A stretch of 39,456 nt of DNA from a virus. Positions 2,976-39,401 of this stretch are shown piece by piece. Position numbers and translations under genes: made by a program. Numbering within the stretch: position 1 is the first letter of the stretch; each line of letters begins with the position of its first letter. The notes under the pieces are model-generated. The model ran no database searches. It was not told the origin of the DNA and saw only the letters and a list, made by a program, of their open reading frames with translations. The stretch lies in IMG/VR virus record IMGVR_UViG_3300045988_145861, positions 1 through 39,456 of that record. The stretch is one strand, 5' to 3'.

Positions 2976-4139
2976 ATGGCATCTGTCAAGGCAGTGAAGC
3001 ACCGTGACGGCACCGTCGTCTACAGGGTCCGCTACCGCGCGGGCGGGCGCAACCCAGTCGTAGAGACGTTCTATGATGCCGCGAGCGCCAAGCGATTCGC
3101 CGACCTCGTCGACCGCGTCGGCGGGGCCGCCGCCCGCGAGATGCGCAGCCTCGACGACCTCGCAGCCGCCGATACGCCGACTGTCGCCGCGGCGTGCGAA
3201 CACCACCTCGAGGCCCTGGCCGCGTCGGCAACGCCCGGCACGATCAGCAGATACAGGCAGATCGTGCGGGACCGGATCGAGCCGAGCCTCGGACTCATCC
3301 CTGTGGACATGCTGACGAGGCATGCGGTCACGAAGTGGGTCGCCGAAATGAGGCGTACGCCCGTCGCTCGCGGTGCCACCGCTGGCCGCCCCCCGTCAGC
3401 AAAGACGATCCGCAACGCCCAAGCCCTCCTATCCGCTGCCCTGCAACGCCTTGTTAACGAGGACGTCATTGCCCGCAACGTCGCCAAGGGCGTCCCCCTA
3501 CCCAAGGACGCGACCGTGCGCGAAATGCGCTTCCTCACCCCCGACGAGTACACGCGCCTCCACGCGCAGATCCCCGCCGACTACCAGCCCTTCGTCGCCG
3601 CAATGTACGGCCTCGGCCTGCGCTTCGGCGAGGCAACCGCCCTCACAGTCGCCGACGTCGACCTCGACGTCGCACAACCCGTCGTCCGCGTCAGCAAAGC
3701 CTGGAAAATGGGCGAAAACGGCACCCCCTACCTCGGGGCCCCGAAAACCAAACGCGCACGCCGCACGGTCACCATCCCCGCGCCCCTCATCCCTGAACTG
3801 CGCGCCGCGCTCGCGGGCAAGGCCTCGGATGAGCTGGTATTCACGGCGCGCAGGGGCGGGCCGATCACGTCGGGGCCATTCCACGCCCACATCTGGCAGC
3901 CTGCGTGTGATGCGGCGGGCCTATCGCCGCGACCGCGCGTGCATGACCTGCGCCATTCGCACGCGTCGGCACTGATCGCGGCGGGCGTCCCCCTGCCCGT
4001 TGTGCAGCGCCGCATGGGGCACGAATCAATCCAGACGACCGTCGATGTATACGGGCACCTCGCGCCTGATGCTTACGCAGGCGCGGCTGAGGCCATGAGC
4101 GTGGCCATGGGCGGGGTGACCCCTCAACTCGGCATGTGA
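2976..4139 (+). CDS. int: Tyrosine recombinase / phage integrase
   Basis: C-terminal catalytic signature HDLRHSHASALIAAGVPLPVVQRRMGHESIQTTVDVYGHL, with an upstream GLRFGEATAL box. Adjacent to the tRNA-like attP. Confidence 0.93.
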   Translation: MASVKAVKHRDGTVVYRVRYRAGGRNPVVETFYDAASAKRFADLVDRVGGAAAREMRSLDDLAAADTPTVAAACEHHLEALAASATPGTISRYRQIVRDRIEPSLGLIPVDMLTRHAVTKWVAEMRRTPVARGATAGRPPSAKTIRNAQALLSAALQRLVNEDVIARNVAKGVPLPKDATVREMRFLTPDEYTRLHAQIPADYQPFVAAMYGLGLRFGEATALTVADVDLDVAQPVVRVSKAWKMGENGTPYLGAPKTKRARRTVTIPAPLIPELRAALAGKASDELVFTARRGGPITSGPFHAHIWQPACDAAGLSPRPRVHDLRHSHASALIAAGVPLPVVQRRMGHESIQTTVDVYGHLAPDAYAGAAEAMSVAMGGVTPQLGM

Positions 4140-4649: not shown

Positions 4650-5060
4650 TTGACCGAACTGCTCACACCTGCCGGGCTGCGGTGTCGCCGCAAAGCCCTA
4701 GGTATGAGCCGTGGTGATCTGGCGTCACTTCTCGACGTGAATGATGGGGTAATCCGCTCGTGGGAGATTGGCAAGACCTGGCCGCGCGATCCCGTGAGCA
4801 TCCACATGCTGCTCGGCCTCATTGAGGATGAGGCCCTCAACTGCGTCGACGACCTCACGGCCCCCGCTGACGGCGAGAACGAGGACGTGCGCGCGCGCCC
4901 AGCCGCCCTGTTCTCATACGTCGATCAAGCCGCGTACGAACAGGGGTGCGAGTGGGCCGCCCGGCTCCCCCTGTCCACGTACCAGGCGTGCGTGGGCCGC
5001 GCCTTCGCCCTCCTGGCCGACCAGGACATCCCGGCCGAAATCATCACACGGACCAATTGA
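4650..5060 (+). CDS. XRE-family HTH protein with an unknown C-terminal domain (136 aa)
   Basis: LRCRRKALGMSRGDLASLLDVNDGVIRSWEIGKTWP HTH. TTG start after AGGAGGA. Confidence 0.6.
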   Translation: MTELLTPAGLRCRRKALGMSRGDLASLLDVNDGVIRSWEIGKTWPRDPVSIHMLLGLIEDEALNCVDDLTAPADGENEDVRARPAALFSYVDQAAYEQGCEWAARLPLSTYQACVGRAFALLADQDIPAEIITRTN

Positions 5061-9449: not shown

Positions 9450-10040
9450 TCACCACGGGATGTAGCAGGCAGACACTGGCACGATCCACCCGTTTCCGAG
9501 ACGAACGGTCGTGTATCTCTTGATTCCAAGCCTGCCGTTCGTCTGTACGCGGAGTTCCGCGTAGGTAGACTCGAAGTCGGCGCCGTTCGCGGTGACTGAC
9601 GCGCCGATAAACTGCTCAGACGATGGTCTGAACTGGTAGGGGATTGTCAGGATGTTGTCCTGATCCCCCCCATTCGATACGACGGCGCCGGAGAGCTGTA
9701 CGACTCCTCCGCGCATGCAGATCGTTGGGGTGTGGCCGCCAGCCACCGCCCATCCTGACGACACCGGCAGGGTCTGCCAGGGCAGGTTTCTGCCTGACAC
9801 GTCGGCCCACCCGCGCCCGTTACAGGCGGTCAGGCATCCGAGGTCGGTCCTATAGACAAATACCGGGCTGGACTCGGAGACAACTGTGCCTGCGGCTTTC
9901 GCCGCTTTGACAATTGCATCCGCAGATTCCTGATTGTGGCACGTCGTGATGTTGTTGATGGAGTCCGCCGTGACCGGCCAGGAGGCCAGATAATCGTCCG
10001 ACGGACCTGGGATCTGTACGCCGTTCCAGCGTTTCTGCAT
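9450..10040 (-). CDS. Minor tail protein, receptor-binding candidate (196 aa, Cys-rich)
   Basis: Last gene of the tail module before lysis. Called by position only. Confidence 0.5.
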   Translation of the reverse strand: MQKRWNGVQIPGPSDDYLASWPVTADSINNITTCHNQESADAIVKAAKAAGTVVSESSPVFVYRTDLGCLTACNGRGWADVSGRNLPWQTLPVSSGWAVAGGHTPTICMRGGVVQLSGAVVSNGGDQDNILTIPYQFRPSSEQFIGASVTANGADFESTYAELRVQTNGRLGIKRYTTVRLGNGWIVPVSACYIPW

Positions 10041-23609: not shown

Positions 23610-25250
23610 TTACCATGCGAAGGAGATCGCGCCGCCGGGTTCCCAGCCTTCGGCGTGCTCATCCGCCGCGGCCTCGTGGGCCAGGATGTCGGCCATGAGC
23701 ACGTCGATCTTCATGTGCTCGGCGGGTTTGCCGAGGATGAACTTGTCGCCGGGCTTGGCGACCTTCCGGGCGTGCAGTGCGCACAGTTTCGCGGTTTCAT
23801 CCGGGGTGTGCGTGGTGAGGCCTTCGGCGAGGTCCTCGCGGAAACGCACCAGGGCCGCGAACATTCGTGTGATCGAGTTCGTCGGCCACTGCACGACCAC
23901 GTAGTCGCCGTACAGGTTTTCCCAGTGGTCGATCTGTGTTTCCCAGTGCCTTGGGTCGCAGTAGAACCGCTGGACCGTGTAGCGTTCCATGAGTTCGGCG
24001 ACCGCCGCGTCCACCTCGCCGCGCGGGATGCGTCCTTCGGGCCATTCCTCGGGGTTCCACACGGTAGGCCGTTGATCTGGGCCGTACGTGGGTGTGAAGC
24101 GCAGTCCGTCGACGGTTTCGGCGCGAATCGCCGTCCAGTCGCCCGACCGCGAACCATCGAAGCCCAGGGCGATTTCGCACCCCGGTTCGGGCTGTTCGTC
24201 GCGGGTCTGGCGATCCCAAACCTTCTCGGTGAGATACGAGCCCTTACCCTGCACGAGGCGATTGCCAAAGAATCGCTCGGCCTGCGTCGGGTCGGTTTCC
24301 ATGAGCTCGTCGACCTCGGCGTCAATCGCCTTGGGGTCCACCCACGGCGACGAGGCGTACACGAAGCGGTGAATCTTCGAGCGATCCGCCTTCTTCGTGT
24401 AATCCCAGTCGAGAGGTGGTTTCTCGTAGAACTTGAAGATGTCCCGCGCCCGGCTTTGGTAGGCCTGCTGCGCCGCCGAGTCCTCCATGGGATCCCACGG
24501 GTTCGTGAGTTCAATGGTGCGGCCCTGCATACCGGCAACAGCGCGGCGGATCGTCTGCCAGGTGTTCAGCACGCCCGATTGGGGAGTATACAGGCCCGAC
24601 TCATCCGCGATAGCGCACGTGAAGGGCTGGCCCAGCTTCGATCTGGCCGCGCTCGTGACGGGCACAATCTTCCCCTCATTCGGGAGACGCACGAAACCTT
24701 CGCGGACACGCACGAAGTCGTCGAGTGGGCCGCTCTTAATCATGGCCTGCAACGGCTCGTAAACGTTACGCGTCTGGTCCTCAGCGAACGCCAAGAGGGC
24801 TATCAGGCTCTTGTCGCGGGGCCGCCCCATGGCCTCGCCCGGCTCATACCAGTACTCCCACCCACAACCGCACCCGTGGTCCGAGCAGCGGTAAACGTCG
24901 CCGTCGCGCGCCCAGCCCGCGAACATCGCCGGGCCCACGCCCTCCGCGAGCGCGACCGCCGCCGCGAGCGGCGACTTACCCGACTTCTGAGGCCCTACCC
25001 ACAGACTACGGCGGTAGGTGAAGGGTTCCACGAGACGGTGAGGGTCCGATTTCGCGTTGGCCTTAATGCGGTAATGGTTGGCGTTGCAGTACAACTGCCA
25101 ACCGTTGAGTACGAGCGGTTGATTGAAGTACACGCCGGAGGGGACGAGGCAGTGGGCCTCGATCCAGTCCGAGATCAGGAAGCCCAGAGTGTGATCCGGG
25201 TTGAAATCCAAGCTGAGTGGGGGCGGCGCGTACTCGTCATGAGCCATCAC
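23610..25250 (-). CDS. terL: Terminase large subunit
   Basis: Walker A-like GPQKSGKSPLAAAVALAE, and a C-terminal nuclease half containing ...IALGFDGSRSGDWTA... Confidence 0.92.
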   Translation of the reverse strand: MMAHDEYAPPPLSLDFNPDHTLGFLISDWIEAHCLVPSGVYFNQPLVLNGWQLYCNANHYRIKANAKSDPHRLVEPFTYRRSLWVGPQKSGKSPLAAAVALAEGVGPAMFAGWARDGDVYRCSDHGCGCGWEYWYEPGEAMGRPRDKSLIALLAFAEDQTRNVYEPLQAMIKSGPLDDFVRVREGFVRLPNEGKIVPVTSAARSKLGQPFTCAIADESGLYTPQSGVLNTWQTIRRAVAGMQGRTIELTNPWDPMEDSAAQQAYQSRARDIFKFYEKPPLDWDYTKKADRSKIHRFVYASSPWVDPKAIDAEVDELMETDPTQAERFFGNRLVQGKGSYLTEKVWDRQTRDEQPEPGCEIALGFDGSRSGDWTAIRAETVDGLRFTPTYGPDQRPTVWNPEEWPEGRIPRGEVDAAVAELMERYTVQRFYCDPRHWETQIDHWENLYGDYVVVQWPTNSITRMFAALVRFREDLAEGLTTHTPDETAKLCALHARKVAKPGDKFILGKPAEHMKIDVLMADILAHEAAADEHAEGWEPGGAISFAW

Positions 25251-28363: not shown

Positions 28364-28828
28364 TTAAAACGGGGGGTCGGTGGGCATGGGTTGGTTGGCC
28401 CACGGGCTGCCGCCGACGGGCTGACCCGTGACGTTGCCAGGCGCGGGCGCTGGCCCGCGCTGCGCCTGGTACTGGCGTCGCGCGGCGGTCGATCCGAGGA
28501 ATCGCGGGTTGATCACTTCGAGGGCTTCGTGGCGCTGGCCGTCCTTGCCGGTGAATTCGACCTTGGCGATCACGCCGCTGAGTGCGACCTGGTCACCTTT
28601 CCGGCACGTCTCAGCGATCCACGAGTGGCGTTCGCCCCACAGGGCGGCGCGCACCCACACGGGTGCTCCCGCGTCCTCCCACTCGCCCGTGGGCTTACCG
28701 TCCGGGCCTCGGCGCTGCCTGCGCGGCGTCGCGCAGATCCGCAGATCCGTGACTTGCTGGCCGCCCTGGGTCCAACGGACCTCGGGGTCAGCGCCCAGGT
28801 TTCCGCTGATGGTTGCTTCGATTGCCAT
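28364..28828 (-). CDS. ssb: Single-stranded DNA-binding protein
   Basis: OB-fold N-terminus MAIEATISGNLGADPEVRWTQGG, Gly/Pro/Gln-rich tail, C-terminal tip TDPPF. Confidence 0.88.
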   Translation of the reverse strand: MAIEATISGNLGADPEVRWTQGGQQVTDLRICATPRRQRRGPDGKPTGEWEDAGAPVWVRAALWGERHSWIAETCRKGDQVALSGVIAKVEFTGKDGQRHEALEVINPRFLGSTAARRQYQAQRGPAPAPGNVTGQPVGGSPWANQPMPTDPPF

Positions 28829-33299: not shown

Positions 33300-33715
33300 C
33301 CTGTTTCCTCCTCTGTGAGAAGTGAATCTTGTGTGTGGGGGGACCTGTCCCACGTCCGGTAGTAGGGGTTGGCGTATTCGGCGAGGCCGCGCGGGTTCGC
33401 GATCTCTAGGAGAACGTCTGCGTGGCATGGCTGGCCCAGTGGACACCAGCACGCGAGGTCGCGACCCCAGAGGACGCGGCGGGCAGAGTCCTCTACGTGG
33501 CGCCCCTCCCTCGTTGTCTCGAGCCACTCACGGAATCGCTCGACTGCCTCCTCGGGCGTGGCGACAACCATGGGATCGCCAGCATCGAGTTCGCGTCGTG
33601 TTCGGGCGACTCGGTAGGGGTTCCCGTACAGGCTTCCCCTGCCCACGTACTTGGTGTGCGCGGGCATACGCCACCCGCGTGTCCGCTGGCGTTGGACACG
33701 GATCGGCACCCTCAT
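33296..33715 (-). CDS. DUF4326-family protein
   Basis: YVGRGSLYGNPY...GRDLACWCPLGQPCHADVLLEIAN matches the DUF4326 signature (GRGS.WGNP...L.CWC....CHAD.L). Confidence 0.7.
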   Translation of the reverse strand: MRVPIRVQRQRTRGWRMPAHTKYVGRGSLYGNPYRVARTRRELDAGDPMVVATPEEAVERFREWLETTREGRHVEDSARRVLWGRDLACWCPLGQPCHADVLLEIANPRGLAEYANPYYRTWDRSPHTQDSLLTEEETG

Positions 33716-34950
33716 GAGCGTTCCTCCGTCCGCGCCGCTCGGATGAGCGTCCCGACCGCGAGCGCGGTTTGTTGTGGGACGACTCCGTTTCCGAGGAGCC
33801 GTAGTTGGTGCTCACGTGGCAGGTCGAGGTCGGTGACGTGGCCGTCTGGTAGGCCCATGAGCCATTCGACGAACCGTGTGGAGAGCTGGGGTTTGCCGCC
33901 TGGGCGGCGTGATGGTGTCGAAGGGGGTGGGGCTGCCCGGCCTGTGATCTGTTCCCATCGGGCGATCACTTTCGCGTAGGGTCCGAAGTGGGTGAGGTCG
34001 CTGCTGGTTGCTACCTCGTGCAGGTTCGGCCCGTATCCGGTGGATGACCTGGACGCGTTCACTGCCTGCGGTGTCGGGAGGAGTCCCCCTGTTGGGAGCA
34101 GGTCGTTTTCGACGATGATGGCCAGGTCCGTGACGCGCTCCCTGACTGGCTTTTTGCGCAGGTGCTCGGACGGGCTGTTTCCCGAGGGCTGGGCGACAGG
34201 TGTGGGGAGGAGCTGCACTGCCTGCGTGAGGCTGTGGCCTGTGCCCTCTGGGTGGCGGCCAGCTTTGTGGTCCGACGCGGTTGGCGTCGGGATCAGAGGG
34301 CAGTCACTTGGTCTTGTAGGCTCACGCTGTGGCCGCCTGCCCGCCGCTTTTCGGGGTGCTGGGGGCCTCCGCATGTCCCAAGGTTGGCCGTGGGGGTGGC
34401 CAATAAGGAAGAGGCGGGCGCGCTGGTGTGGTGCGCCGGCGTCGGAAGCTCGTATAACTGCCCAGTGACAGTCATACCCGAGGCCGGCCAGGTCTCCTGC
34501 CACACGGCCTGCTGCCCTGAGAGCAGGTCGAGTTGCTTGGTCTCCCAGCATTGTCGGCTCGGATTCCAACGGGCTATAGGCTCTTGCACTGAGGGCTCCT
34601 TGCACGTTTTCCCACACCACGAGGCGGGGTCTGATGGTTTCGATTGCGGCGGCCATGGATTCCCAGAGGCCCGAGCGTGTGCCGGTGGCCATGCCTGCGC
34701 GTTTGCCTGCGAGGCTGAGGTCTTGGCATGGGCTGCCGCCGCAGATGATGTCGACGGGTTCCACGTCTGCCCAGTCGATCTGGGTGATGTCCCCGAGGTT
34801 CGGGGTGGTGGGCCACCTGACGGCAGCGAGCTTGCAGGGACCGGGTTCAACGTCGCTGGTCCAGGCGACCCGCGCGTCGGGGTCTATGGCCATGGCGACC
34901 CCCATATCCAGGCCGCCGTACCCGGTGAACAGACTCCCGATGGTGGTCAT
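33712..34950 (-). CDS. DNA (cytosine-5)-methyltransferase
   Basis: Motif I LFTGYGGLDMG, motif IV GGSPCQDLSLAGKR, motif VI VVWENVQG, motif VIII GAPHQRARLFLIG, motifs IX/X FVEWLMGLPDGHV and LLGNGVVPQ. Confidence 0.92.
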   Translation of the reverse strand: MTTIGSLFTGYGGLDMGVAMAIDPDARVAWTSDVEPGPCKLAAVRWPTTPNLGDITQIDWADVEPVDIICGGSPCQDLSLAGKRAGMATGTRSGLWESMAAAIETIRPRLVVWENVQGALSARAYSPLESEPTMLGDQATRPALRAAGRVAGDLAGLGYDCHWAVIRASDAGAPHQRARLFLIGHPHGQPWDMRRPPAPRKAAGRRPQREPTRPSDCPLIPTPTASDHKAGRHPEGTGHSLTQAVQLLPTPVAQPSGNSPSEHLRKKPVRERVTDLAIIVENDLLPTGGLLPTPQAVNASRSSTGYGPNLHEVATSSDLTHFGPYAKVIARWEQITGRAAPPPSTPSRRPGGKPQLSTRFVEWLMGLPDGHVTDLDLPREHQLRLLGNGVVPQQTALAVGTLIRAARTEERS

Positions 34951-35183
34951 TGTTCCGCCAGCTCCTCGACTGAGATACCGACCTCCCCGGGCGCGGCGGT
35001 GGTGCTCGTGTAGCCGACAGCGAGTTTGGCGCTTTCGTTGAAGTATCCGGCTGGCCTGATCTGTATGTTGTCGATCATGGAGCCTTCGGGCAGGCGGAGC
35101 ATGATCGCGCCGAGGAGCGCGGAGGGGATACCCTTTCGCGGGTCGTAGGTGATGGTGAATACATCGCGGCGTTGCGTGCTCAT
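34947..35183 (-). CDS. Small-protein family member P6 (78 aa), detached copy
   Basis: VFTITYDPRKGIPSALLGAIMLRLPEGSMIDNIQI...KLAVGY follows the same pattern as P1-P5. Confidence 0.55.
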   Translation of the reverse strand: MSTQRRDVFTITYDPRKGIPSALLGAIMLRLPEGSMIDNIQIRPAGYFNESAKLAVGYTSTTAAPGEVGISVEELAEQ

Positions 35184-35347
35184 TGTGCGGTCCTTTCGAT
35201 GTCGCTCAAGTGCAGTATGAGGTGGTCAACATGAGTGGCTGCTTCGTCGATGGCGAGGGTGATACCCAGCTTGTTGGCGATGCCTGCGGCTTCCCTGATC
35301 TGCTCTCTCGCTTCGAAGAGGCAAGACAGTACGTCATCCACATTCAT
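35180..35347 (-). CDS. Hypothetical small protein (55 aa), below the track length cutoff
   Basis: My translation: MNVDDVLSCLFEAREQIREAAGIANKLGITLAIDEAATHVDHLILHLSDIERTAQ. GAGGAGGA RBS and ATGA overlaps at both ends. Confidence 0.5.
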   Translation of the reverse strand: MNVDDVLSCLFEAREQIREAAGIANKLGITLAIDEAATHVDHLILHLSDIERTAQ

Positions 35348-35493
35348 GCGAAGTCCTCCTCACTAACGCTGGCGGCGGCCATTTGTGCTGCGAGCTGGGT
35401 GACCGCGTCCTGTAGTGCCGCCATGGCGATTGCTTCACGCAGGTGGGCGGCGGCCTCCGCGTAGGGGCTCTTGTGCGGCCATTCGGGGATCAT
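35344..35493 (-). CDS. Hypothetical small protein (49 aa), below the track length cutoff
   Basis: My translation: MIPEWPHKSPYAEAAAHLREAIAMAALQDAVTQLAAQMAAASVSEEDFA. The ATG overlaps the methyltransferase stop (ATGA). Confidence 0.45.
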   Translation of the reverse strand: MIPEWPHKSPYAEAAAHLREAIAMAALQDAVTQLAAQMAAASVSEEDFA

Positions 35494-36519
35494 GCTGCGT
35501 CATCTCCCATGCCGAACAGGTTGAGGGGCGCTTCGATGCCCTGCGCGAAACGTGCTTTGATGAGCGGGATGTACCTGTCGTCGAGTTCGCAGCCGACCGC
35601 GCGCACGTTCTCCATGGCCGCCGCCTGCAGGGTTGTGCCCGACCCGGCGAACGGTTCGAGGATCAGCGCACCGGGCCGCACCACGAGACGGATCAGGTAT
35701 CGCATGAGCTCGAGGGGCTTCACGGTGACGTGCTGTACCCCCCCCCACGATGGGGCGCTCGCGCTTAGGGGCCTTCGGTTGGTATCTGAATACCGGCCAC
35801 ACGTGGTCGGGGGCGCCCTGCTGCACGGCGGCGGCCATGGCCTGCTCGCCCATGAGCAGGTTCGGCGGGTACGAGCCGCCCGCTGCGTCCATGCCTGCGC
35901 GAATGTTCATCGCGCCGGTGCCGTGCTCACGGACGTTGTCGACCAGGCGGCCCTCGAGAGGGCGTCGCGCGACGACGATGGGCTCCCACGCTGGTTTAAG
36001 GCCGACGCCCCAGCCTTCCCAGGTTTTGGCTTCGTCGGTGACAGGTTCGCCGGTGGCGTGGAGTTTGTGAGATGACATGTGCGTCGCGGTGGCCTCGTCT
36101 GCCCATTCGCGCACGTCGCGGCCTTCGCGTTGATCCAGGACGCCCGTGGCGCGGTCGAACGCTGATGAGAGGTCCATTCCGGCGGGTTTGCCGTCGGCTC
36201 GTATCCAGGCCATAGCGTCGCGGATCTCGAAGCCGGCGTCCTCGAGGGCGCTCGTGAGCCGGTGGTAGGTTCGGGGCGCGCTGAACGCGAGCAGGTAGCC
36301 GCCGGGCTTGATGACGCGCAGCGCCTCCTCTCCCCATGACTGCGCCCACGCCTGGAACCCCTGCGGGGTGGCCGTGTCCCACTTCTCGCCCGCGAAAATG
36401 ATCCCGTAGGGCGGGTCAGTGATGACCGCGTCGAAATGATCGGCGGGGAGCCTGCGCATGATGTCCCGGCAATCCCCCTGGTGCAGGGTGATGCCGTCGT
36501 ATAGGTCGATTCCGTTCAC
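35490..36519 (-). CDS. Beta-class (DPPY first, FxGxG last) N6-adenine/N4-cytosine DNA methyltransferase, frame-interrupted at a G9 tract (35738-35746)
   Basis: GTG 36519 overlaps the RecT stop (GTGA). N-terminal part: ITDPPYGI motif IV. After the G9 run the true continuation HVTVKPLELMRYLIRLVVRPGALILEPFAGSGTT (motif I) is in the other frame (track ORF 35490..35723). 1030 nt is one nt too many. Confidence 0.8.
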
Positions 36520-37523
36520 GCTGCGCCCCCGTTCGGGTCGGTGTCGTCGCCGTAGTCGAAGATCGGGGCCTGCTGGTCGTCGATGATCTCGACCTCGGCC
36601 TCGGGCGCCGGTTCGGGCGCCGGCTGGGTGCGACCGCTGTTGTAGATAGCGAGCAGCTCGGCGTGGATTATGGAGGCCTGTTCGTCGTTCAGGGCGGTCA
36701 CGGAGATGAGCTGGCCGAGGCACCGCTTGCACAGCGCATCGTAGGCTTCCTGGGTGAAGCTGAGGATGTCGAGGCCCTTTGCGACGCTGGCCTGCGCGGG
36801 CGTGAGCGGCTTTGCAGGCTGGGTTAGCTCATGTGGTGCCGCCGCGGGCGTCGCGGCCGGCGTCGGCTTCGCCGCCGGGGCAGGCTTGGCGGGTGCTTCG
36901 GCGACGATCTCCGCTTCGATGACCTCACCCGTCTCCGTCATGGTGGCCCCGAAGTCCTCGGGGCTGTAGATCATGCCCATGAGGGCTTCGGATGCGCCTT
37001 GGCGCGCGACCTCGGTGATTGCACGGGTCCTGAGCATCTGGGTCGGGTACTGCGACCAGGGCCCCTTCTGGCCCCACAGGCCCGCCTTCACGGCCTTGTC
37101 CTTGTCCCAGGTCACCTCGAATTTGAACGTCTTGTCGTCCGCGCGGATCAGCGTCGCAGTCACGGACTCGGGGCTGTTTTCGGCGATGCGCAGGGTGTGG
37201 CCGGCGCGGCGGATCACGGCGGCCATGAGGTCGGATGAGAGTGTCGCCCGCCCGTTGATGACGGCGATAGAGGCCAGCGCTTGGAGCGGCTCGAGGCCGA
37301 GGGCTGCGCCGGTTTCGGCGGCGACAAATGCGTTCGCAGGGTTGCCCCTGTATGCGGTGGGGATGATCGTTGAGGGGGCGATCCGCGCGATGTAGGCGGC
37401 GCGTTCCTGCAGGCCGGCGGTGATGTAGGAGAATCCGGGGGTTGGCGTGGGGGCCGGTACTGGGGTGGTTTTCGCGGCGGCCTTGCCGCGAGGCTTAGCG
37501 ACTTCGGTGGAAGCCATGAGCAT
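36516..37523 (-). CDS. recT: RecT-family single-strand annealing recombinase
   Basis: ...AALGLEPLQALASIAVINGRATLSSDLMAAVIRRAGH...WGQKGPWSQYPTQMLRTRAITEVAR is a RecT-like core, with an Ala/Pro-rich acidic tail. Confidence 0.8.
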   Translation of the reverse strand: MLMASTEVAKPRGKAAAKTTPVPAPTPTPGFSYITAGLQERAAYIARIAPSTIIPTAYRGNPANAFVAAETGAALGLEPLQALASIAVINGRATLSSDLMAAVIRRAGHTLRIAENSPESVTATLIRADDKTFKFEVTWDKDKAVKAGLWGQKGPWSQYPTQMLRTRAITEVARQGASEALMGMIYSPEDFGATMTETGEVIEAEIVAEAPAKPAPAAKPTPAATPAAAPHELTQPAKPLTPAQASVAKGLDILSFTQEAYDALCKRCLGQLISVTALNDEQASIIHAELLAIYNSGRTQPAPEPAPEAEVEIIDDQQAPIFDYGDDTDPNGGAA

Positions 37524-37550
37524 GATTCCTTTCAGTAGGAGATCGGGGTG

Positions 37551-37889
37551 TCAGTCCTGGCCCTTTCGGCGGCGCCTGGTTGCCGACCGGCGCTTCGCCT
37601 CGTTCTGGTCCAAGGAGAGCCACACGAGGTAGCCGCCTTGTCCGTCCGAGCGGGAGTCCACGACCCAGAACGTGCCGTGACGGTTAAGGCTGTGAGCGTA
37701 GGCGCGGATCGTGTCCACGCGGCGGCGGGGCCAGCCGCCTGTCTCGCTGTCCTCGTTCGGTAGGAGAAACGTTTCGCCTGGGTGCGTCTGGATGTGGCGA
37801 CGCTCGGCGGGCGTCGTGATGCGCAGGAACAGGGGGGCGTGGGAGCCGATCTGCGTCTTGCCGGGGATCGGGGCTTTACGGATCGTCAT
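37551..37889 (-). CDS. Hypothetical protein (112 aa), basic C-terminus
   Basis: Track ORF, ATGA-coupled to the upstream gene. Confidence 0.5.
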   Translation of the reverse strand: MTIRKAPIPGKTQIGSHAPLFLRITTPAERRHIQTHPGETFLLPNEDSETGGWPRRRVDTIRAYAHSLNRHGTFWVVDSRSDGQGGYLVWLSLDQNEAKRRSATRRRRKGQD

Positions 37890-38101
37890 TCTGCTTCGCC
37901 TCCCTGCTGTTCTTCGCGGCCCATGACGGCGAGGGCGAGTGCGATACCGCAGGCGGTGGGGATGAGGGCGAGGACGCCGGCGGCGAGGTTTCGCTCGTAG
38001 ACGGCCAGAAGCATCGCGAGTGCGCCGTTGGTTACGGATGCGGCGGCGGCCAGGAGGTAGATGGTTGCGGCGGTCTTGGTGTAGACGGGCACGTATCGCA
38101 T
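37886..38101 (-). CDS. Small two-TM membrane protein (71 aa from ATG 38101)
   Basis: AAGGA RBS before ATG 38101. Hydrophobic segments AATIYLLAAAASVTNGALAMLLAV and VLALIPTACGIALALAVM. Confidence 0.5.
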   Translation of the reverse strand: MRYVPVYTKTAATIYLLAAAASVTNGALAMLLAVYERNLAAGVLALIPTACGIALALAVMGREEQQGGEAE

Positions 38102-38131
38102 GGTGGTTTTGTCCTTTGGGTGATTAGGGGG

Positions 38132-38166
38132 TGGGGGCCGCCGGGCTGCCAGCGGGGCGGCCCCCA
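38132..38166 (-). terminator. GC-rich hairpin (11-bp stem TGGGGGCCGCC / GGCGGCCCCCA) between early genes, possible attenuator
   Basis: Read directly. No U-tail. Confidence 0.3.
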
Positions 38167-38177
38167 CACGGGCGGGG

Positions 38178-38474
38178 TTAGGCTACGAGCGGCTGTTCGG
38201 GCAACGTCGCGGCGAGCTTCCTAGCGACAGCTTCGCGCATGTCGGCGGCGCCGATTGCGGCGTCCAGGTCGTCGATGATCTTCGTCATCCTGTCGTGCTC
38301 CTTGCTGAGCACTGCCTTTGCGACGCGGATAGCTGCGGCGGTGTGGAGTCGCTCGACTTCTTCGTGGTCGATCTCGGCGGCGAGGCTTTCCTCCTTGAGG
38401 AAGGCGCGCAGCCACGTCAGGTCGTCGAGCTCAATAGTGAGTGTCACCGGGTTTACGAGGTGCTTCGTGGTCAT
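38178..38474 (-). CDS. Hypothetical protein (98 aa)
   Basis: Track ORF. The ATG overlaps the adhesin stop (ATGA). Confidence 0.5.
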   Translation of the reverse strand: MTTKHLVNPVTLTIELDDLTWLRAFLKEESLAAEIDHEEVERLHTAAAIRVAKAVLSKEHDRMTKIIDDLDAAIGAADMREAVARKLAATLPEQPLVA

Positions 38475-39401
38475 CGTCCGTGGCCTCCCAGGTAACGGCG
38501 GTTGATGACGTACCCACCGGCGGTGAGGAGGACACCCAGGGCGAAAGACCCGAGCGCGACCTTGATGCCGTCGAGGGTTGCGCCGGTCTTAGCGAGCTGA
38601 GTCGCCGGGGCCGGAGCGGGCTGTGCGTCTGCTTTCGGCTCGGGCTTCGGGGTCGCGTGCGTGGGCACGGGCACCGGCTCGGTGGTCACGCGCGGCTCCG
38701 GGGTGGGGTCAGGAGTCGGCGTGGACTGGGGTTCGTCCGAGGGCTTCGGTGCGGGCGTCGCAGGCGTGGACGGGGTGGTGGGCGTCGGCTCCGGCGTGGG
38801 CTCCGTGGACGGCTCGGGGGCCGGGGCGGGCGTGGGCTTCACGGTGCCGTCACCGTCGGTGCCGCCGCCGGCCTTCACTGTCGCGGTCGCCTCCAGGCTC
38901 GCGCCGTTGATCGTCGCCTTGTTGGTGTACGTCGTCACGCCCTCGACGGGCTGCGTCGCGTCAGGGTAGGTCACGCACGTGAGAGCCCCGGTCGGGGGCG
39001 TGAACACGAGGGTGTGCTTCGTGTCGTCGAGCTTGCCGTCAGTCCACGACGTGGTCGCGGGGTCCCAGGTCGGGCCGGTCGAGCATTTCACCGCCGTGTG
39101 CAGTGTGTTGGTTTCGTCGATGATCGTGTACTCGACGCTGGGGTCCGCCTTCCACTGGATGCCCCACCCGACCGAGCCGTCGCGGTTGGTCCACCCGTAC
39201 TTCACGGTTTCGGGCCGTGCGTACTCGTAGTGAGCGGGGCCGGAGCAGTCGTTGCTGCAGGTGCCCGTGCCCTCACGGTCGCCCCACACGAGGGTGCGGA
39301 CGACCTGCCCGTTCAGGGTGATCGAGGTCGATTCAGTTCCAACCGCCTTGTCGACGAGGCTGGCGCGGGCATGGAACGTGCCCGTGACGTTCTCCTTCGC
39401 G
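38471..39401 (-). CDS. Cell-wall-anchored adhesin, C-terminal segment: Ig-like domains, Pro/Thr-rich stalk, LAKTG sorting signal
   Basis: C-terminus ...ATQLAKTGATLDGIKVALGSFALGVLLTAGGYVINRRYLGGHGR is an LAXTG motif, a hydrophobic helix and a basic tail. The track Met at 39427 is internal; the true start is at 344 across the junction. Confidence 0.8.

Follow-up and report, generated by a model that had tools for sequence, protein, structure and literature searches.

Contingency loci are a classic bacterial strategy that has been shown in phages only recently. In phage T2 the A9 run of agt is a proven contingency locus, in which +/-1 frameshifts switch DNA modification off and on, and agt OFF phages escape modification-dependent restriction by TgvAB but pay for this with sensitivity to McrA/BC (Gomez, Barrick and Waters, bioRxiv 2025, PMC12633550). 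The T-even contingency loci of that report are agt and rIIA. Hypermutable polyG tracts of Campylobacter Fletchervirus phages give rise to phenotypically mixed phage populations, according to the passage of PMC11032452 that cites Sorensen et al. (2021, Cell Rep 35:109214). Among bacteria, poly-G/C tracts make methylases phase-variable in Helicobacter, Campylobacter and Neisseria, including the Mod enzymes of phasevarions. The limited full-text literature consulted yielded no phage-encoded phase-variable methyltransferase, only bacterial cases and two reports of phage contingency loci. Here we analyze a beta-class N6/N4 DNA methyltransferase gene of a virus (IMG/VR record IMGVR_UViG_3300045988_145861; its whole 39,456-nt stretch is referred to as the window) that is interrupted at a run of nine G (G9). 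Comparison with its relatives suggests that G9 is probably a genuine phase-OFF allele of a hypermutable slipped-strand poly-G contingency locus in an orphan phage methylase.

The locus resembles T2 agt in that a nine-base homopolymer lies in a phage-borne DNA-modification gene. However, T2 is a virulent AT-rich phage, agt encodes a glucosyltransferase and its switching was shown experimentally, whereas the present locus is known from sequences alone. Fletchervirus also has poly-G tracts in phage genes, but in the cited description these are receptor-binding protein genes of virulent phages, and the host itself has polyG switches. With the bacterial phase-variable methylases the locus shares a frame-setting homopolymer within the open reading frame (ORF), the occurrence of both lengths among strains, the dominance of G8 and G9, and an allelic central target-recognition region (342- versus 420-aa forms here; modM and modA alleles there, PMC6902483, PMC4417156). 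Those methylases are chromosomal, whereas this enzyme is carried by a temperate phage of a high-GC actinobacterium. In addition, the Type III Mod enzymes of phasevarions have a Res partner, while the phage enzyme is a small, Type II-like, apparently orphan beta-class protein, and the bacterial runs usually lie near the 5' end, this one the target-recognition domain (TRD) and the S-adenosylmethionine (AdoMet)-binding domain. Homopolymer tracts of Mycobacterium tuberculosis, where runs of at least 7 nt gain or lose bases recurrently across the phylogeny (PMC10334774), share an actinobacterial replication and repair background with the locus, but they reside in chromosomal pathogen genes and involve neither phages nor methylases.

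The anatomy of the gene is summarized in Table 1. On the coding strand the surroundings of the run read CGC CCC ATC GTG GGG GGG GGT ACA GCA CGT. From the GTG at 36519, frame 0 encodes 258 native residues and then an 81-residue Arg-rich tail, 339 aa in total. The authentic continuation lies in the other frame (QHVTVKPLELMRYLIRLVVRPGALILEPFAGSGTT..., QHVTVKPLEL...EPFAGSGTT...) and terminates at TGA 35492-35490. The GTG overlaps the stop codon of the RecT-like gene as GTGA; at the other end, the TGA and the ATG of the next ORF (35344-35493) share bases as ATGA. Editing the run in silico to G8 yields an intact 342-aa protein and editing it to G11 one of 343 aa, whereas with G10 translation stops after 8 further codons. 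The sequence-only reading had proposed the interruption at G9, both overlaps and the Arg-rich tail ending at 35500, all of which we recovered; its expectation of 342 aa for G8 or G11 is correct for G8, but G11 adds a residue. It had also singled out G9 as the longest homopolymer, and a census of the entire window (65.4% G+C) identified it as the sole run above 7 nt, the next longest being 7 nt. We saw no relevant repeats or inverted repeats flanking the run that would signal another switching mechanism.

Table 1. Features of the window (positions in nucleotides; strand as + or -), with those of the methyltransferase gene listed first
Feature	Position	Strand	Remarks
Beta-class N6/N4 DNA methyltransferase gene, complete	35490-36519	-	Two frames that meet at the G run; found in phase OFF
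Poly-G tract G9, frame-switch point	35738-35746	-	C9 on + strand; encodes Val-Gly-Gly(-Gly)
N-terminal 258 codons, start-codon frame	35747-36519	-	Catalytic region with DPPY and central variable TRD-like region
C-terminal 82 codons, +1 frame relative to start	35490-35737	-	HVTVKP, motif I FAGSG, stop TGA
Out-of-frame Arg-rich tail, 81 codons, read from G9 allele	35500-35737	-	Stop TGA 35502-35500
DPPY motif	36417-36406	-	
HVTVKP element	35732-35715	-	
FAGSG motif	35651-35637	-	
RecT-like gene, upstream of the methylase	36516-37523	-	Pfam RecT 1.4e-4, below curated cut-off
C5-cytosine methyltransferase, second of the operon	33712-34950	-	Intact, 412 aa; Pfam PF00145 2.6e-32
Tyrosine integrase	2976-4139	+	Pfam PF00589 1e-23; PHROG 1 integrase 1.6e-67
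Helix-turn-helix (HTH) protein	4650-5060		
Large terminase	23610-25250		
SSB	28364-28828		

The G8 reconstruction matches Pfam PF01555 (N6_N4_Mtase) with an E-value of 1.8e-29 and 103.8 bits (cut-off 26.7) over residues 30-321 (221-position profile), a match that spans the frame junction. DPPY (residues 35-38) precedes FAGSG (residues 290-294) with a variable region between them, which is the beta-class order. Both ends of the protein align to 8urk, CcrM (6pbd), M.RsrI (1eg2) and M.MboIIA (1g60), the C-terminal part to the HPTQKP...FxGSGTT region of 8urk and CcrM, in agreement with the earlier assignment of DPPY to the N-terminal part and of motif I to the C-terminal part in the other frame. 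In the alignment to the solved enzymes, the Gly-Gly encoded by the run immediately precedes HVTVKP, the equivalent of HPTQKP. These four enzymes and TTHA0409 (2zie) likewise have DPPY first and FxGxG last. However, similarity to them is limited to the two conserved ends (E-values from 1e-16 to 1e-12), their central regions are unrelated to that of the phage enzyme, and none of them is known as repeat-switched. Relatives of 342 or 343 aa are 85-89% identical to the reconstruction across the full length. From DPPY and the JGI name, the methylase is probably N6-adenine-specific.

Within the phage family the central region occurs as two alleles, one in proteins of 342 aa and the other in proteins of 420 aa, the latter with a 77-aa insertion and divergent flanks. 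The poly-G run is present in both, and the difference suggests different target specificities. The observation concerns P0048, P0057 and P0062, and the differing region corresponds to about 35900-36150 of the window.

Run length varies among relatives. A collection of 5.8 billion protein clusters was searched with the G8 reconstruction, and the best 120 clusters were typed by junction peptide and C-terminus. Sixty-seven of them are intact (342, 343 or 420 aa, mostly ...VGGVQHVTVKP...), at least 48 enter the +1 frame as the window does (339 aa, ...VGGGTARHRE...) and at least 5 are of the -1, G7/G10 type, truncated at 263-266 aa (...VGG(G)YSTSP, then stop), the OFF counts being lower bounds in a score-ranked list. 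DNA loci were gathered from IMG/VR and a metagenome collection, the latter with a pattern anchored on the conserved flanks that accepted any G run or none. After deduplication 47 distinct genes remained, of which 35 are in frame, 11 are shifted to +1 and one to -1. The site carries G6, G7, G8, G9, G10, G11 or an interrupted run; G8 and G11 leave the gene intact, G9 and G6 lead into the +1 frame, and G7 and G10 into the -1 frame. Classified by the longest uninterrupted run, G8 is found in 23 of the 47 alleles (all in frame) and G9 in 10, nine of them OFF(+1) and one in frame since GTA became GGA. The remaining classes are G10 (three alleles, two in frame and one OFF(+1)), G7 (four, three in frame and one OFF(-1)), G6 (four, three in frame and one OFF(+1)), G5 (two, in frame) and a single in-frame allele whose run has dissolved (AGGTGGCG). 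Thus, 36/47 alleles keep at least 8 uninterrupted G. In-frame alleles with interrupted shorter runs, such as G6TG, G5AGG and GTG6, would act as locked-ON forms. In T2, agt OFF variants are rare, at about 1e-3 to 1e-4 of reads; here, by contrast, OFF is the consensus in a quarter to two-fifths of relatives. In Campylobacter, insertions predominate among the mutations of G8 tracts and deletions among those of G11 tracts, and nine is the modal length (PMC3401435); the phage site, where G9 far outnumbers G7, matches this insertion bias from G8. As a side observation, the TGA of the -1 (G7/G10) product overlaps a GTG (as GTGA) that opens a 77-aa ORF (35490-35723 of the window, - strand). This ORF comprises the whole AdoMet-binding end and is called by gene callers as a separate N6_N4_Mtase fragment (in L102).

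The changes of state are recurrent and recent. With the run masked, 39 near-full-length genes were placed in a neighbour-joining tree; OFF alleles appear in it at no fewer than six separate places, and the closest ON/OFF pair, L057 (G8) and L071 (G9), is 1.1% divergent. Even closer are contigs L104 and L105 (behind P0005 and P0098), which were chosen by their identical N-terminal protein halves. L104, assembled with MEGAHIT from sample ERZ27256053, has G11 and encodes a 343-aa ON protein, while L105, from sample ERZ28665076 and a different assembler, has G9 and is OFF. Over 4197 nt they are identical save one single-nucleotide polymorphism (SNP) and a GG indel in the run, with one more SNP within 2680 nt upstream. 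Likewise, L106 (G8) and L108 (+1 allele) share 99.6% identity across 7 kb. Because such near-identical pairs differ at the run, the run changes on a time-scale with almost no substitutions. Reversible slippage predicts that the frame will also be regained at lengths other than G8, and the in-frame G11 and TG10 alleles imply such reversibility, as does the nesting of OFF alleles among ON alleles. We infer that switching within one lineage is fast and reversible. Examination of the tract in related phages had been suggested as a check of the phase-variation proposal, and its outcome, a polymorphic run with ON and OFF alleles interspersed in the tree and near-identical genomes differing at the run, is the one that the proposal anticipated. 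The clade of the window itself (window, L043, L056 and L032) is G9 throughout at 5-8% divergence.

An unstable run could also be a non-adaptive mutational hotspot that knocks out a dispensable methylase, the OFF alleles being young loss-of-function variants. We consider this unlikely, although it remains the most serious competitor of slipped-strand phase variation. It would account for the OFF state of about 25-40% of alleles and for the locked-ON alleles, and the neighbouring C5 methylase is frameshifted in L104 and L105 (by 2 nt, at no repeat), so methylases can be lost in this phage group. What stands against it is the pattern of selection. In 31/31 full-length relatives, neither gap nor stop interrupts the 246 nt that follow the run; no secondary lesion (indel or stop) has accumulated behind the run. 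Substitutions at the three codon positions of the methylase frame number 78:46:376 between OFF-OFF pairs and 1342:974:6235 between ON-ON pairs, so that the third-position share is 73-75% for OFF and ON alike, and the pattern holds even inside the all-G9 clade of the window. The C-terminal methylase frame is therefore the conserved one, as the sequence-only reading had claimed. Since purifying selection also acts on the C-terminal domain of OFF alleles, plain gene loss, which that reading had listed as an alternative in the form of an inactivating mutation or pseudogene, does not fit. The Arg-rich tail was considered as a selected alternative C-terminus and rejected, because OFF-OFF pairs differ at 12-27 of its 81 residues in the G9 frame compared with 0-8 in the methylase frame.

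The run itself gives a less decisive but similar signal. It is built on GTG GGG GGG GTA, even with GGG among the minor codons for Gly here (GGC 407 versus GGG 124, tract included), and it persists across about 25% DNA divergence and both domain alleles, which is not expected of a mere hotspot. G occupies its three synonymous sites in 91%, 97% and 88% of the in-frame alleles, whereas the major allele at 32 other four-fold sites has a mean frequency of 0.80, a difference small enough to be claimed for the hotspot as well. Tolerated replacements at the run include VGEV, VDGL, VAGV, VVGV, VMGV and an extra Gly; therefore, many run-breaking mutations were available. The frame restoration in G11 and TG10 suggests, moreover, that selection recovers back-switching. 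Taken together, selection on the run itself is moderately supported. An attempt to derive significance from composition failed: after dinucleotide-preserving shuffling, the mean number of G9/C9 runs per window is 1.17, and 55/100 shuffles have at least one, which is close to what is observed. It is thus the comparative data, and not its length, that make the run significant. The real window is depleted of long G/C runs: for G7, 13.4 matches would be expected, but there are 4, which overlap and fall at 2 loci.

The constraint on the out-of-frame part suggests that either the ON/OFF state flips far faster than the sequence diverges or G9 alleles remain decoded. The latter would amount to programmed recoding, by +1 ribosomal slippage or RNA-polymerase stuttering, with G9 as a low-expression rather than an OFF state. 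We regard recoding as improbable. Judging from the sequence, GGG GGG GGU permits perfect +1 re-pairing of the P-site tRNA-Gly, and the run is also Shine-Dalgarno-like; the C-terminal domain is selected in G9 lineages, one whole clade of which is G9. The +1 frame is, in addition, open for 233 nt in 31/31 relatives, ending 7 nt before the next ATG and thereby within 7 nt of the normal stop, whereas the -1 frame stops after 13 nt. However, synonymous resampling gives an expectation of about 0.40 for such openness per sequence, and as the sequences are related, the openness is not significant against chance. Recoding is also not required, because 35/47 relatives have the gene in frame anyway, and run lengths range from G6 to G11 instead of being fixed as at a programmed site. 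Neither a conserved 0-frame stop nor a rare codon follows the run directly, and -1 alleles occur as well. For bacterial RNA polymerase, slippage has been documented chiefly at A/T runs. Hence recoding, one of the options left by the sequence-only reading, is not needed, although low-level leakiness may coexist with a DNA switch. G9-type OFF alleles might preserve translational coupling to the downstream genes through their open frame.

That the run of the window was miscalled, with a true G8 and an intact gene, is the least credible explanation: indel errors arise most often in homopolymers and a single-base change restores the frame, but the exact 339-aa product is found on four Logan/ENA contigs and as NCBI DAV32263.1 ('MAG TPA: DNA methylase [Caudoviricetes sp.]'), a 39,528-nt MEGAHIT contig of ERR589729 (PRJEB6997, human oral Illumina metagenome) is 100% identical to window positions 33500-38519 with G9 included (such independent assemblies may draw on the same reads, so what they exclude is an artefact of the assembler and not an error in the reads), G9 is likewise found in the three closest relatives, which come from other assemblies, and at least 48 diverged clusters among the best 120 end in the same +1 tail.

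Slipped-strand phase variation, one of the options that the sequence-only reading had offered, is thus favoured because length polymorphism, recurrent and recent ON/OFF changes and purifying selection on the out-of-frame part are found together. The features by which a simple sequence repeat contingency locus is recognized at the sequence level are all present, namely, a mutable tract within an ORF (for homopolymers, of at least 7-8 nt), tract lengths that differ between conserved flanks, and toggling in a gene that is nevertheless kept. In the proposed mechanism, slipped-strand mispairing during replication of phage or prophage DNA would add G to the run or remove it. Actinobacteria are not known to possess MutS/MutL mismatch repair, and its absence favours indels in runs. 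G8 (342 aa) or G11 (343 aa, with one extra Gly) would join the catalytic and target-recognition part to the AdoMet-binding part and give an active enzyme. With G9 or G6, translation would enter the +1 frame and produce the 258 native residues plus the 81-residue junk tail, and with G7 or G10 it would enter the -1 frame and stop after 8 codons. OFF products, having no AdoMet site, would be unable to methylate, so that a phage population would release both methylated and unmethylated genomes. Such a mixture could hedge between hosts with restriction-modification (R-M) systems, which methylation would evade, and hosts with methylation-dependent (Type IV) restriction; alternatively, switching could avoid the cost of the enzyme. 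The proposed benefit follows the logic shown for the A9 run in T2 agt.

Several observations weigh against this interpretation. Classical switches are usually found near the 5' end of a gene, but three-quarters of this gene precede the run. The uniform G9 state of the four-member window clade could mean that G9 is stable there, and the locked-ON alleles (G6TG, G5AGG and others) indicate that the run is dispensable. Conservation of the tract at synonymous sites exceeds the background only modestly, and G9 is, as the shuffles indicate, not improbable from composition alone. Furthermore, every allele is an assembly consensus, and the adaptive trade-off is a pure inference by analogy. A more far-reaching interpretation, to which we give somewhat less than even credence, is that a widespread family of temperate Actinomyces phages from the human mouth uses the run to control its own epigenetic mark, either for bet-hedging or as a prophage phasevarion. 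In the former case each burst or induction would yield mixed genomes able to cross between R-M hosts and hosts with methylation-dependent restriction. In the latter, the run might toggle the host methylome in lysogens, thus constituting a phage-borne phasevarion.

If the locus is indeed phase-variable, contingency loci would extend to the DNA methyltransferase, the commonest phage counter to restriction, to a phage that is temperate and has a high-GC Gram-positive host, and to a natural human-associated community in which both states are common consensus alleles and not rare variants. It would also provide a concrete system for asking whether phages hedge between classical and methylation-dependent restriction. 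For annotation, metagenomic phage methylases frameshifted at G/C runs should be neither 'corrected' nor labelled pseudogenes automatically.

The methylase sits within an early lytic recombination/replication operon (RecT/SSB), and its synteny with RecT is kept in relatives. Its 3' neighbours are three small ORFs (49, 55 and 78 aa) without PHROG matches, followed by the C5 methylase. We found no nuclease domain in the neighbours that could represent a cognate nuclease, these neighbours including the three small ORFs without assigned function, and on present evidence the methylase appears to be an orphan enzyme. The window represents a tailed phage, which is temperate, as the tyrosine integrase shows. 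Megablast searches with the gene and with the whole window detected no close relative among 50,697 GenBank phages; the best patches (~250-430 nt, 72-76% identity) came from Actinomyces phage xhp1 and Propionibacterium phages PFR1/PFR2, so that the phage has no annotated reference. Related methylase genes occur in metagenome-assembled genomes (MAGs) named Actinomyces sp. and Actinomycetaceae, and a scan of species-representative genomes returned two loci only, both in Actinomyces/Actinomycetaceae MAGs and both in frame with interrupted runs. Many relatives come from oral metagenome projects. All these sources point to a temperate Actinomyces phage of the human oral microbiome.

The C5 methylase varies in its own way. 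Its length among relatives is 371-443 aa, and in L104 (4232-5363) and L105 (4230-5361) it is split into 124 + 244 aa. This split was considered as a second switch and rejected, because it is due to a 2-nt deletion outside any repeat. A 12-nt direct repeat in the C5 methylase homologue, CAACCCACCTCG, is present in one copy in L106 (at about 5116) and in two copies in L108, in frame. Upstream of the methylase, a ~200-nt rearrangement or insertion (L105:2680-2830) breaks the RecT-like gene of L105, L104 being otherwise identical. L106 (at 1560) and L108 differ by a 4-nt ACAG indel near the 5' end of a small ORF upstream of RecT, homologous to window ORF 37551-37889, and the indel alters the called start (129 versus 112 aa). 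Finally, the second-longest G/C run of the window is a C7 on the + strand (9665-9671), which reads as G7 in an ORF of the structural region (9450-10040, - strand).

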